Shown here piece by piece: positions 2,687 through 7,368 of a stretch of DNA of 13,592 nucleotides. Location: positions 1 to 13,592 of the IMG/VR virus record IMGVR_UViG_2778261231_000014, one strand, 5' to 3'. The notes below the pieces were generated by a model. That model searched no databases and was not told where the DNA came from. It was given only the letters and a program-made list of their open reading frames with translations. Position 1 is the first letter of the stretch. Each line of letters opens with the position of its first letter. Source of the stretch: a virus (lineage: Duplodnaviria; Heunggongvirae; Uroviricota; Caudoviricetes). A program made the translations under genes and the position numbers.

Positions 2687-3229
2687 TCATATAACCCCCA
2701 ACATTGACGTGACCATCGTCATCAGCGGCCCTACCTGCTCCGGCATGAGGCGGAACAGCGACGCTATACCCTCGCTTACCTCTTTCAGCTTCTGATGCTC
2801 TGGAGCGCCCAGAAGCACTGCCTGCTTAGCTTCGGCACACTCTTTCATCGCGGATGCGATCAGCGACATCGTGTCGTTCTGTGGTGCAAGGCGGTTGCGA
2901 AATTCCAGTGGAAGTACCGCCATGATTGCGGGCGTCAGCTGGCGCACGTTCTCGCGGTACTGCTCAGAGTCGAAACGGTTATCCAGAAAGCGAAAAAGTT
3001 TCTGGCGCGCCCTGCTGATGTCTTCCGGGAAGCTGATGGCGGTACCGCCCTGCTCCCGGTATTCGTTGATGATCAGTGCCGAAACGACGTCCTGATTGTC
3101 CAGCGCCGAAGACCATGCCCGGACCGCATCGCGGATCTTTTCGTGGTCTGGCGCCGCCTTAGGTTGAGCGCGGTTTATCATCGCTCCCGGGTGTATTCCG
3201 GTATTGTGTTGATACGCAAGTGAATGCAT
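2687..3229 (-). CDS. YdaT-like regulatory protein (CII-position analog of Rac-type prophages)
   Basis: Sits immediately downstream of the cro-like gene. Motifs EYREQGG and LTPAIMAVLPLEFRNRL resemble Rac YdaT as I recall it. Start could be ATG 3229 or internal ATG 3181. Confidence 0.6.
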   Translation of the reverse strand: MHSLAYQHNTGIHPGAMINRAQPKAAPDHEKIRDAVRAWSSALDNQDVVSALIINEYREQGGTAISFPEDISRARQKLFRFLDNRFDSEQYRENVRQLTPAIMAVLPLEFRNRLAPQNDTMSLIASAMKECAEAKQAVLLGAPEHQKLKEVSEGIASLFRLMPEQVGPLMTMVTSMLGVI

Positions 3230-3258
3230 TGCTTTCCCTTTCGTGGTTAGGGCCGCCG

Positions 3259-3480
3259 TTAGGCGGCAAAGATACCTGGATATAGAACTTCGCGAGGAAG
3301 CCCCGTCACTTCTTCGTACTTACGCATTTTTGTTACTGGAAGGCTGCCACCTCGCTTTTTAAGCATATTGATGGCCTGTGGCGTTACGCCGACCTTTTCA
3401 GCAAGCACCTTTTGAGAGCCGCCCACTGCATTAATGGCTTTCTCAAGCGGGGTGCTTGCGTTGGATTCTTTGTTGATCAT
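3259..3480 (-). CDS. Cro/YdaS-like small HTH regulator (73 aa)
   Basis: HTH-like segment QKVLAEKVGVTPQAINMLKK; GGAG RBS 7 nt upstream of ATG 3480; divergent from the repressor gene across an operator region. Confidence 0.7.
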   Translation of the reverse strand: MINKESNASTPLEKAINAVGGSQKVLAEKVGVTPQAINMLKKRGGSLPVTKMRKYEEVTGLPREVLYPGIFAA

Positions 3481-3597
3481 GTTTTGCTCCGCTCATGTGT
3501 AATCAACACCATGTTAATTCATGATGTGGATTAAATCAACATTATGGTGATGGAAAAAATCCACATGTTGTTTACCATGCATGGAGCGGAGGGTTTT
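3481..3597. promoter_or_regulatory. Immunity operator/promoter region (OR-like) between the divergent cro-like and cI-like genes
   Basis: Four copies of AATC(A/C)ACA or its complement at 3501-3508, 3525-3532 (TGTGGATT), 3534-3541, 3558-3565. 3525-3541 forms an imperfect 17-bp palindrome TGTGGATTAAATCAACA. A leftward TTGATT-17-TAACAT promoter candidate lies on the - strand. Confidence 0.6.
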
Positions 3598-4308
3598 ATG
3601 AGTAGCATTTCTGAAAGAATTAAATTTTTACTGGCAAGGGAAGGCTTGAAGCAGCGGGATTTGGCTGAGGCTTTGTCGACTAGCCCACAGACCGTCAACA
3701 ACTGGATAAAAAGAGACGCGTTAAGTCGTGAGGCGGCGCAACAAATATCTGAAAAATTCGGTTATTCTCTTGACTGGTTATTAAATGGAGAGGGTTCTCC
3801 AAAGAAGGATCTGGAGAGCAACATCCCGCCAGAGTCTGAGTGGGGAGTTGTTGATGCATGGGATAAAGACACCCCGCTTCCTGTTGATGAGGTTGAAGTG
3901 CCATTTCTTAAGGATATTGAATTTGCGTGTGGTGATGGTCGAGTTCAGTGCGAAGACCACAATGGATTTAAGCTGAGATTCTCCAAGGCAACGCTCAGAA
4001 GAGTGGGTGCAAATAGTGATGGTTCTGGAGTGCTTTGCTTTCCCGCTTCTGGTGACAGCATGGAGCCCGTTATTCCTGACGGCGCAACGGTAGCAGTCGA
4101 TACAGGCAACAAGCGGATTATTGACGGCGAACTCTATGCTATTAACCAGGGCGATTTAAAGCGCATAAAGCAGCTTTATCGAAAGCCTGGTGGGAAGCTA
4201 TTAATACGAAGCATCAATCGCGATTATGACGATGAAGAGGCTGATGAGGCAGATGTCGAGATAATCGGTTTTGTGTTCTGGTACTCGGTATTGCGATATC
4301 GCCGATAA
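3598..4308 (+). CDS. CI-like phage repressor (N-terminal XRE-type HTH plus C-terminal S24/LexA-like peptidase)
   Basis: HTH RIKFLLAREGLKQRDLAEALSTSPQTVNNWIK; S24 signature GDSMEP and a downstream Lys (LKRIK). Start ATG 3598 with GGAGGG RBS; in-frame ATGs from 3544 exist but overlap the operators. Confidence 0.85.
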   Translation: MSSISERIKFLLAREGLKQRDLAEALSTSPQTVNNWIKRDALSREAAQQISEKFGYSLDWLLNGEGSPKKDLESNIPPESEWGVVDAWDKDTPLPVDEVEVPFLKDIEFACGDGRVQCEDHNGFKLRFSKATLRRVGANSDGSGVLCFPASGDSMEPVIPDGATVAVDTGNKRIIDGELYAINQGDLKRIKQLYRKPGGKLLIRSINRDYDDEEADEADVEIIGFVFWYSVLRYRR

Positions 4309-4314
4309 TTTTAG

Positions 4315-4425
4315 TGGCCTGAAGAGACGTTTGGGTGATAAGAGAATATCTGATAGTAGGCGTGGTTACTTTGCTCTCGGTTGTTGCGATCGTGCTTATG
4401 GTGGCCTGATGAGACGTTTGGGTGA
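4315..4425. repeat. Two copies of a 25-bp direct repeat GTGGCCTGA(A/T)GAGACGTTTGGGTGAT, 86 bp apart, between the cI-like and KilA-N genes
   Basis: Copy 1 at 4315-4339, copy 2 at 4401-4425, one mismatch. Read directly from the sequence. Confidence 0.7.
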
Positions 4426-4457
4426 TTATTTTATTTTTCACAGCAATAGGATGATTT

Positions 4458-5219
4458 ATGACACAGTTTCAACTTGCATTAATCGCCAGAGAAGTTGATG
4501 GAGAAGTCATCCATCTTCGCACCAAAGACGGTTACATCAATGCCACCGCAATGTGCAAGTCTGCTGGGAAGCTACTTGCTGACTATACACGACTAAAAAC
4601 AACGCAAGATTTTTTTGATGAATTATCCCGCGATATGGGGATTCCCATATCGGAATTAATTCAATCATTTAAAGGCGGAAGAGCAGAGAATCAAGGGACT
4701 TGGGTTCATCCAGACATCGCAATTAACTTAGCTCAGTGGCTATCTCCAAAATTTGCAGTGCAAGTATCGAGATGGGTGCGTGAGTGGATGTCAGGCGAAA
4801 GAGCGCCTGCCGAACTCCCTATCCACCTTAAGCGGTATATGACAAACCGAGGCAGGGTTCCTCATACGCACTTTTCTATGCTTAATGAACTGACGTTTAA
4901 CCTGGTTGCGCCACTTGAGCAGGCAGGATATACGCTGCCAGAAAAAATGGTCCCTGATATTTCAGAAGGTAGGGTTTTCTCGCAATGGCTTCGTGAAAAC
5001 CGGGGTGTTGAGCCGAAGACGTTCCCAACATATAACCATGAGTACCCAGATGGCCGGACATTCCCGGTACGTCTATACCCAAACGAATATCTTGCAGATT
5101 TCAAACAACACTTCAACGAAGTGTGGCTGCCTCAGTACGCTCCTAAATATTTTGCAGAACGAGACCAAAGGGCATTGACGTTGATTGAGAAAATCATGTT
5201 GCCTGACCTTGATTCCTAA
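4458..5219 (+). CDS. KilA-N domain protein (253 aa) with an unassigned C-terminal domain
   Basis: N-terminal approximately 100 aa (INATAMCKSAGKLLADYTRLKTTQDFF...VHPDIAINLAQWLSPKFAVQVSRWV) fit the KilA-N/APSES-like fold. AGGA RBS; lower GC than the flanks. Confidence 0.65.
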   Translation: MTQFQLALIAREVDGEVIHLRTKDGYINATAMCKSAGKLLADYTRLKTTQDFFDELSRDMGIPISELIQSFKGGRAENQGTWVHPDIAINLAQWLSPKFAVQVSRWVREWMSGERAPAELPIHLKRYMTNRGRVPHTHFSMLNELTFNLVAPLEQAGYTLPEKMVPDISEGRVFSQWLRENRGVEPKTFPTYNHEYPDGRTFPVRLYPNEYLADFKQHFNEVWLPQYAPKYFAERDQRALTLIEKIMLPDLDS

Positions 5220-5227
5220 ATGTTATA

Positions 5228-5250
5228 CCCGGCCACCAAGCCGGGGTTTT
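5228..5250 (+). terminator. Putative intrinsic terminator after the KilA-N gene
   Basis: Stem CCCGGC / GCCGGG, loop CACCAA, followed by GTTTT. Sits between the convergent KilA-N and 65-aa genes. Confidence 0.4.
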
Positions 5251-5446
5251 ACTGCCCTTTCCGCACTATCTCAGCTGCATCCCTGTTCACACCCTTACCT
5301 ATCACGTTTCCCGTTTCCTTCCGGTACCGTTCCAGCTTGTCGATGATGTTTTGCTGGGTCATAGGTAAATCTGCCAGTGACAACTCCATGACCGCCCGCC
5401 CCATGGCGTGAACCATCATGTTCACTCTTTCTTCATCCAAGCCCAT
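5249..5446 (-). CDS. Small hypothetical protein (65 aa), divergent from the early-left promoter
   Basis: AAGGAG RBS 8 nt upstream of ATG 5446-5444; possible extended -10 TGATATGCT on the - strand upstream. No family recognised with confidence. Confidence 0.55.
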   Translation of the reverse strand: MGLDEERVNMMVHAMGRAVMELSLADLPMTQQNIIDKLERYRKETGNVIGKGVNRDAAEIVRKGQ

Positions 5447-5501
5447 TACCCACTCCTTTTTGATGTTTTTTTCAGCATATCACTTATGCCACCAAAAAAT
5501 A

Positions 5502-5576
5502 AATCAACATAAAAATCAACAAGAAACGATTAAATCAACAAAATAAATCCACAAGGTGTTGACCTATAAATCCACA
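5502..5576. promoter_or_regulatory. Second operator-like cluster (OL-like): five direct copies of AATC(A/C)ACA
   Basis: AATCAACA at 5502, 5514, 5533; AATCCACA at 5546, 5569. Same motif family as the cI/cro intergenic region; the last copy lies between the -35 and -10 of the rightward promoter. Confidence 0.55.
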
Positions 5577-5587
5577 TGATGTTTAAT
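5559..5587 (+). promoter_or_regulatory. Putative early-left (pL-like) sigma70 promoter: TTGACC-17-TTTAAT
   Basis: TTGACC at 5559-5564, TTTAAT at 5582-5587, 17-bp spacer containing AAATCCACATGATG. Points toward the recombination-gene operon. Confidence 0.45.
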
Positions 5588-5633
5588 TATCCCATCGAAA
5601 CGAAACATCGACAGCTGAGCGAAGTTAGCCAGC

Positions 5634-5664
5634 GGCGGACAGCAAGTCGCCTGCTTTTTAACAA
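5634..5664 (+). promoter_or_regulatory. nut-like site in the leader: bulged hairpin followed by a boxA-like TGCTTTTTAACAA (alternatively a leader intrinsic terminator)
   Basis: Hairpin GGCG(G)AC-AGCAA-GTCGCC at 5634-5651, then TGCTTTTTAACAA at 5652-5664, which is one mismatch from the rrn boxA core TGCTCTTTAACAA as I recall it. Confidence 0.35.
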
Positions 5665-6003
5665 CATGCAGATTTACAGCGTCAATGACCTGTTAAGACC
5701 CCTACACGTAAACGTGCTGTATCACCGGGTGCGATCCGGTCGGTGAGAGAGTATCCCCGCGCGAGAGCGAGAACGGCGTGAGAACGGGCAACACTGGCAG
5801 GGAGTTGGCGCTGACCAATACAGGGAATGTTATGGGATGTGGTGAAGGGTTCATGGACGGGAATATGTCGCACGTAAAGCGGCGAGGCCCGAGGAGCTAT
5901 TGCCGAAGATAAGTAGGCCGAATCGGGTCGAAATGGGTCTCCCACCTACCACATCGCCAAAGCATTTCTCCCGCATCAGCGGGTAACGACAGAGGGTAAG
6001 GGG

Positions 6004-6300
6004 ATGATCGACGACATCAAGCGCATCGACTCAATGATAAATGCGCTTCGCAATATGAAACAGGACATCAAGCGTCAGCAGAAACTAAGTGAAATAAACA
6101 GTTTAGACCTGTCGCCGAAGCAAGCTCAAAAGCGCAATGCCGATGCTGACTGGATTGCGATGGAACAGATTAAGCGTCGGCATGAGCTGCACGCTCTGTC
6201 TGTTGAGCTTGGGTTCGCTGAGCGCCGGGAAAGTTATGCTCCATTTGAATTAACTGACGGGTGGCACCGATTCGACCACAAGCCGCGCGAACCTCAATAG
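6004..6300 (+). CDS. Hypothetical early protein (98 aa), first gene of the rightward early operon
   Basis: RBS AGGGTAAGGGG before ATG 6004; followed immediately by an intrinsic terminator. No family recognised. Confidence 0.55.
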   Translation: MIDDIKRIDSMINALRNMKQDIKRQQKLSEINSLDLSPKQAQKRNADADWIAMEQIKRRHELHALSVELGFAERRESYAPFELTDGWHRFDHKPREPQ

Positions 6301-7228: not shown

Positions 7229-7368
7229 GCGAAAGCCCACCGAAGTGGGCCCGCCATGTCCGGCCTCACCGACCAAAGTTACACCGGAAACAACATTAAA
7301 ACCAAAGTTAACCCAATGGGCGCTATCAATGGTCCGGGGATTCTAACACCCAAAAATGAGGATCTCAC

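Follow-up and report, generated by a model that had tools for sequence, protein, structure and literature searches.

The locus described here occupies positions 5502–5587 of a viral DNA stretch of 13,592 nt (the window, by which we mean the whole stretch that was analysed) and sits among the genes of a phage immunity region. On its left, the cI/cro intergenic region is enclosed by a cro-like gene on the minus strand (3259–3480; Pfam HTH_3), which corresponds to gene 30 of phage phi80, and by the cI repressor gene on the plus strand (3598–4308), whose product matches Pfam Phage_CI_repr/HTH_3 and Peptidase_S24 (S24). A PDB sequence search returned no structure of phi80 CI; the nearest solved structure is the N-terminal domain of the 434 repressor, with weak similarity in the HTH domain (E about 1e-4), and the 434 operator differs from the sites described below in both sequence and length. 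On the right of the locus follow, on the plus strand, a nutL signal (5652–5716) with boxA TGCTTTTTA at 5652–5660 and a boxB-like hairpin core CACGTAAACGTG at 5705–5716, both transferred from the phi80 genome record JX871397, and the gene for the antiterminator N (6004–6300, 98 aa; phrog_25091), which is the first gene of the operon read from the promoter pL. In record M11919 a nutL signal is annotated across the same stretch, and an N annotation at the equivalent of 6004–6300 is present in three phi80 records. RecE and RecT are encoded further right of the immunity region.

Two more genes lie between cI and the locus. The first (4458–5219, plus strand) encodes a KilA-N protein that matches the BstA abortive-infection family (phrog_6287, E 2e-82; PADLOC BstA, E 1.6e-20) and stands in the place of phi80 gene 40A; BstA genes are typically located downstream of the prophage repressor (PMC8585504). 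Between cI and this BstA-like gene we observed a 31-nt direct repeat (4309–4339 and 4396–4426), the copies of which are 90% identical and 87 bp apart. For BstA loci an anti-BstA (aba) DNA element has been described. The second gene, orf65 (5249–5446, minus strand; phrog_3975), has 65 codons and no assigned function and diverges from pL; it is unannotated in JX871397 and was called by PGAP in E. coli G3/10. A strong Shine–Dalgarno sequence precedes it, 382 relatives are found in IMG/VR, and the pN/pS values range from 0.06 to 0.40 with near-saturated synonymous sites; judged from this substitution pattern, purifying selection acts on orf65, which is a real gene.

Some features of the DNA downstream of the locus were recorded alongside. 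A G+C-rich hairpin (5634–5651) abuts the nutL boxA (region 5634–5664) and, together with a T-run, was scored as terminator-like by a scan, about 55 nt into the pL transcript. The boxA, when read as TGCTTTTTAACAA, is presumably one base off the rrn boxA. Many Stx1- and Stx2-converting phages contain unannotated DNA with about 95% identity to the long untranslated leader from boxA to N (5652–5968); beyond this leader, the immunity regions of these phages do not match the window. A scan of the window for structured RNA at the Rfam gathering threshold returned the Hfq-binding sRNA isrB alone (7230–7327, minus strand, 38.2 bits against a gathering score of 35), just upstream of recE. A 56-codon open reading frame at 5576–5746 was considered and rejected as a gene: its ATG lies within the operator at 5569–5587 and upstream of the expected start site of pL, and it has no family match.

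A repeat cluster overlapping an early promoter

By pattern search we found nine copies of the 8-mer AATC(A/C)ACA (AATCMACA) in the window, where 1.03 were expected, and none of 200 dinucleotide-preserving shuffles reached nine copies. This clustering is real and not a product of chance. Five copies fall within the locus, all on the plus strand: three have the form AATCAACA and start at 5502, 5514 and 5533, and two have the form AATCCACA and start at 5546 and 5569, so that all five direct copies at 5502–5576 are where an initial annotation of the sequence had put them. The same annotation had described the 8-mer in both orientations between cI and cro, where we located the remaining four copies (starting at 3501, 3534 and 3558 on the plus strand and at 3525 on the minus strand). 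These two regions, referred to below as OL and OR, contain every copy in the 13.6-kb window. The last copy of the cluster is placed between the hexamers of a rightward promoter, TTGACC (5559–5564) and TTTAAT (5582–5587) with a 17-bp spacer, which also agrees with the earlier description; the promoter (5559–5587, plus strand) is expected to start near 5594.

Comparison with database records indicates which phage this arrangement belongs to. In a megablast of positions 3200–6300 phi80 matched at about 95% over 73% of the query, and for positions 5440–5640 the identity to phi80 is about 96–97%. When both sequences are aligned, all five 8-mers, the right halves of both operators on the promoter (see below) and both promoter hexamers are identical, and the five base changes are confined to the spacers and to the bases just downstream of the −10 element. 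The ‘O-L region’ of record X13065 maps onto 5502–5593. The CI operators annotated in JX871397 map onto 5502–5521, 5546–5564 and 5569–5587, and its pL has the −35 element at 5559–5564 and the −10 element at 5582–5587, after which nutL and gene N follow (the features of JX871397 were transferred by alignment, with an offset of +93 for nutL and of +198 for OR). In the record of phage HK225 a promoter is annotated at the bases equivalent to pL. A generic sigma-70 consensus scan called no promoter in 5150–6100, pL included, because its rule needs an A at the second position of the −10 element and TTTAAT has a T there; the pL call therefore relies on the phi80 and HK225 annotations.

The proteins agree with this assignment. 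Between the CI proteins of the window and of phi80, 7 of 236 residues differ, all of them outside residues 1–83; the Cro-like protein shares 72 of 73 residues with the product of phi80 gene 30, and N matches its phi80 counterpart with 100% identity. With an identical CI DNA-binding domain, an almost identical Cro and an identical N, the window carries the immunity of phi80. We therefore assign 5502–5587, with a probability of about 95%, to OL and the early leftward promoter pL of a mosaic lambdoid prophage with phi80 immunity (imm80). The initial proposal of a second CI/Cro operator cluster overlapping an outward promoter is thus borne out by the near-identity to phi80 and by the O-L, CI operators and pL annotated there. 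The resemblance covers the DNA itself and its flanks, with orf65 on one side and nutL and N on the other. The prophage is nevertheless not phi80 itself: besides the five base changes, the BstA-like gene replaces gene 40A, and the pL operon carries recE/recT, with likeness to phages HK225 and mEp237.

The OL/pL region of phi80 is already known and has been in public records since the 1980s, so that the repeat cluster is a rediscovery of a known repressor-controlled switch and nothing new. Ogawa and co-workers reportedly described phi80 OL/pL in 1988. A full-text literature search, with the primary phi80 papers outside its reach, returned no description of the phi80 operators.

Architecture of the operators

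We next considered whether the 8-mer is a direct repeat in its own right, as initially described, or one half of a symmetric site. For each same-strand copy we compared the 8 bases located 3 bp beyond it with the inverted half-site TGTTGATT; a match at 5 or more of these 8 bases has a background probability of 3.3% across the window. At OR the right halves match at 7 of 8 (copy at 3501), 6 of 8 (3534) and 5 of 8 positions (3558), and the two proximal OL copies at 5546 and 5569 match at 6 of 8 positions each, whereas the distal OL copies at 5502 (2/8), 5514 (1/8) and 5533 (1/8) remain at background level. A 19-bp dyad in which AATCMACA-N3 is followed by a TGTTGATT-like right half consequently fits the three OR copies and the two copies on pL, or five out of eight on the same strand, and the same 19-bp reading is implied by the 19-bp length of the corresponding JX871397 features. 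In a relative from Pantoea stewartii the operators are near-perfect palindromes, for example AATCAACA-TAA-TGTTGATC. From these comparisons the 8-mer appears, at the five sites that fit, to be the conserved side of an operator of 19 bp with partial two-fold symmetry, the other half of which is degenerate.

With this definition the operators can be delimited as follows. The OL1-type CI/Cro operator at 5569–5587 (AATCCACA-TGA-TGTTTAAT) spans the spacer and the −10 element of pL, and the OL2-type CI/Cro operator at 5546–5564 (AATCCACA-AGG-TGTTGACC) spans its −35 element; both are annotated in JX871397. The distal OL3 (5502–5521) is made of two direct AATCAACA half-sites 12 bp apart and is given as a 20-bp CI operator in JX871397, and one more lone half-site AATCAACA at 5533–5540 on the plus strand bears no operator annotation in the phi80 record. 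The OR operators, mapped from the JX871397 annotation, are located at 3501–3519, 3534–3552 and 3558–3576 and overlap pR and pRM. The impression of direct repeats arises because all operators have their conserved half on one and the same strand and because three lone half-sites are added at the distal end. The description as direct repeats accordingly falls short for the five copies that fit 19-bp operators and holds for the three distal OL half-sites, which are without a symmetric partner and would not readily be used by a symmetric dimer.

Inside OR we observed an additional inverted 8-mer at 3525–3532. Together with the neighbouring copy it forms TGTGGATT-A-AATCAACA at 3525–3541, a 17-bp near-palindrome with the opposite polarity of its half-sites, the left arm of which is imperfect in phi80 (CGTGGATT). 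It is possibly a separate site, perhaps one used by Cro.

Variation of OL among related prophages

If the repeats are operators of CI, they are expected to follow the repressor. We found the recognition helix SPQTVNNWIKR to be shared by the CIs of relatives from Pseudocitrobacter, Pantoea, Citrobacter, Rosenbergiella and E. coli 1218KP, and in those relatives whose fetched locus includes OL the motif AATCMACA is kept at both OR and OL; for Rosenbergiella it was observed at OR only, within the fetched locus. The same recognition helix thus goes along with the same motif in five genera. A prophage of Enterobacter sichuanensis shows the reverse situation: its CI (locus L010, 4902–5669) is nearly identical to the window CI over the C-terminal two-thirds and has an unrelated N-terminal HTH domain, and (A/T)TAACC repeats replace AATCMACA at both OR and OL. 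This CI is a natural chimera, and four lone direct half-sites are found at the distal OL end of the prophage. HK639, ENT1, SW-37 and many IMG/VR contigs likewise have the same flanks around OL cassettes with other repeats, and in the loci checked these heteroimmune repeats recur in the phage’s own cI/cro intergenic region. In the sequences compared the motif tracks the N-terminal DNA-binding domain of the repressor, which argues against any host factor as the protein that reads it.

For a closer view of the imm80 type we compared 14 distinct OL variants. The varying columns are distributed very unevenly: 26 of 35 in the spacers, 9 of 40 in the 8-mers and 3 of 16 in the right halves, where OL1 (5569–5587) served as the search anchor, so that its invariance is given by construction. 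In the 1218KP variant the only change in the OL2 8-mer falls on the degenerate A/C position, and in more distant relatives two of its eight columns vary. The pair of half-sites at 5502 and 5514 with its 12-bp spacing was retained throughout the relatives examined (Pantoea, Citrobacter, Pseudocitrobacter, 1218KP and HK225), and the half-site at 5533 occurs in all E. coli-type imm80 variants and is absent from the Pantoea and Citrobacter relatives. Part of the conservation of OL may be due to recent recombination of the OL cassette and not to selection alone.

OL (about 5505–5590) behaves as an exchangeable cassette of about 90–110 bp (loci L010, L012, L013 and L015–L094), the flanks of which, the predicted orf65 promoter and the leader CCATCGAAACGAAACATCGA, bracket at least eight unrelated operator sets in different phages. 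In HK639, the ENT1-type Enterobacter phages and related prophages the cassette is flanked by orf65 with its predicted promoter and, at the opposite end, by the leader CCATCGAAACGAAACATCGA, just as in the window, and they also share the plan of two operators on pL and a third, distal site. They differ in that each type has its own operator sequence and in that the distal site is mostly a full palindrome instead of lone half-sites.

A putative divergent orf65 promoter and other readings of the repeats

The distal half-sites (5502–5521 and 5533–5540) may have a function of their own, as they do not overlap pL and the pair is nonetheless conserved across genera. A putative promoter of orf65 can be predicted from the sequence at 5474–5502 on the minus strand, with an extended −10 element TGaTATGCT (5482–5474) and a weak −35 element TTATTT (5502–5497). 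The pair at 5502–5521 would be situated at about −35 to −54 of this promoter, which makes control of orf65 by CI a reasonable hypothesis. It is conceivable, at odds that we put clearly below even, that the distal half-sites mainly regulate the divergent orf65 promoter, which would add to the OL/pL reading and not replace it. CI bound upstream of the start would then activate or repress a small gene expressed in the lysogen, comparable to OR2 acting on pRM, a suggestion that we regard as equally tentative. The purifying selection on orf65 is in line with it, and so is the fixed position of the TGnTA(T/C)GCT and ATTTATTTTT elements upstream of orf65 (TGnTATGCT as the extended −10) in at least eight heteroimmune OL cassettes, in each of which the distal operator sits just beyond the orf65 promoter elements. 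On the other side, the promoter is a prediction with a weak −35 element, and a distal OL3 exists in lambda too, where no divergent gene accompanies it, so that the distal position by itself does not demand a role for orf65. The Enterobacter prophage of other immunity that shares the C-terminal domain of CI has its four lone half-sites in the same place. That lone half-sites let CI control the orf65 promoter in a pRM-like manner at OL, and that the lone-half-site array is a design feature of this CI family, is a proposition that we hold to be less likely than not.

The other readings fare much worse. One could take the AATCAA cores for sites of IHF or another bending protein, or the A-rich stretch for an UP element that stimulates pL; the consensus core of IHF is WATCAA, which AATCAA fits, and the stretch from −40 to −60 of pL is A+T-rich. 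On inspection, however, the TTR part of the IHF consensus was present at the right distance in none of the copies, and the OL repeat elements co-vary with immunity type, and we consider this reading very unlikely as an explanation of the repeats, while an UP-like contribution of the A+T-rich spacers to pL is possible. Still less probable, to a degree that leaves it only a slight chance, are origin-of-replication iterons or binding sites of some other direct-repeat-binding protein, such as the orf65 product, even if same-orientation repeats with irregular spacings of 12–23 bp in an A+T-rich stretch would suit them. In phi80 the origin repeats, which bind gp15, have been annotated within the O-like gene 15, at a distance of about 3.4 kb on the far side of cI and cro, and the motif also occupies the cI/cro intergenic region and goes with the N-terminal domain of CI. 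The orf65 product was rejected as the binder of the 8-mer: it is 98% identical in an Enterobacter prophage with entirely different OL repeats and hence cannot set their specificity. Finally, the initial alternative of host DnaA binding is arithmetically correct in that AAATCCACA shares 7 of 9 bases with the DnaA box TTATCCACA, but we regard host DnaA boxes that would recruit DnaA to the early promoter as next to impossible, as no OL copy among the five comes within one mismatch of TTWTNCACA, the 15 such matches in the window are below the 22.75 expected by chance, and the repeats at the OL position switch with phage immunity type, unlike a host-factor site.

DISCUSSION

We have assigned the repeat cluster at 5502–5587 to OL and pL of a phi80-immunity prophage, and the way in which it would work can be outlined from the phi80 and lambda paradigm, from homology and from the geometry of the sites, from which we infer CI occupancy of OL and repression of pL in this element. 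In the lysogen, CI dimers on 5569–5587 and 5546–5564 would cover the −10 element and spacer and the −35 element of pL, respectively. RNA polymerase would thereby be excluded, and nutL, N and the downstream early operon including recE and recT would stay silent. On induction after DNA damage, RecA-stimulated self-cleavage of CI via its S24 domain would free pL, and Cro (3259–3480) is expected on the same sites later. The distal half-sites at 5502/5514 and 5533 most likely serve for extra cooperative occupancy by CI and possibly help looping between OL and OR.

The overall layout is that of lambda, as the initial annotation had noted: two multipartite operator clusters, OR at 3501–3576 and OL at 5502–5587, flank cI at a distance of about 2.0 kb, and in the relatives the separation of OL and OR amounts to about 1.1–2.9 kb. 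As in lambda OL, the two proximal operators cover the −35 and −10 elements of the early promoter and a third one is distal, the promoter reads into nutL and N, and the repressor combines an HTH domain with a self-cleaving S24 domain. There are differences as well. The lambda operators are 17 bp long, whereas those of the window have 19 bp with one half strongly conserved and the other degenerate; the conserved halves are all on the same strand, so that OL does not mirror OR as it does in lambda; and the distal OL site consists of lone direct half-sites, with a small divergent gene abutting OL. For the lambda, HK022 and phiKO2 repressors, the only three tested, looping between OL and OR in vivo has been observed in a loopometer study (PMC8053113). 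Our search of the literature and of structures returned no looping assay for phi80 CI. Given the layout, repressor-mediated looping between OL and OR is plausible for a phi80-type CI.

Taken together, our analysis adds no new kind of biology. The same region is contained in the common cloning strains DH5alpha, DH10B, TOP10 and JM83. Further study might be rewarding only for the array of lone half-sites and for the orf65 promoter that CI possibly controls. For the prophage itself, the assignment to phi80 immunity fixes the regulatory map, with OR, pR, pRM, OL, pL, nutL and N, and it predicts which superinfecting phages the prophage excludes.
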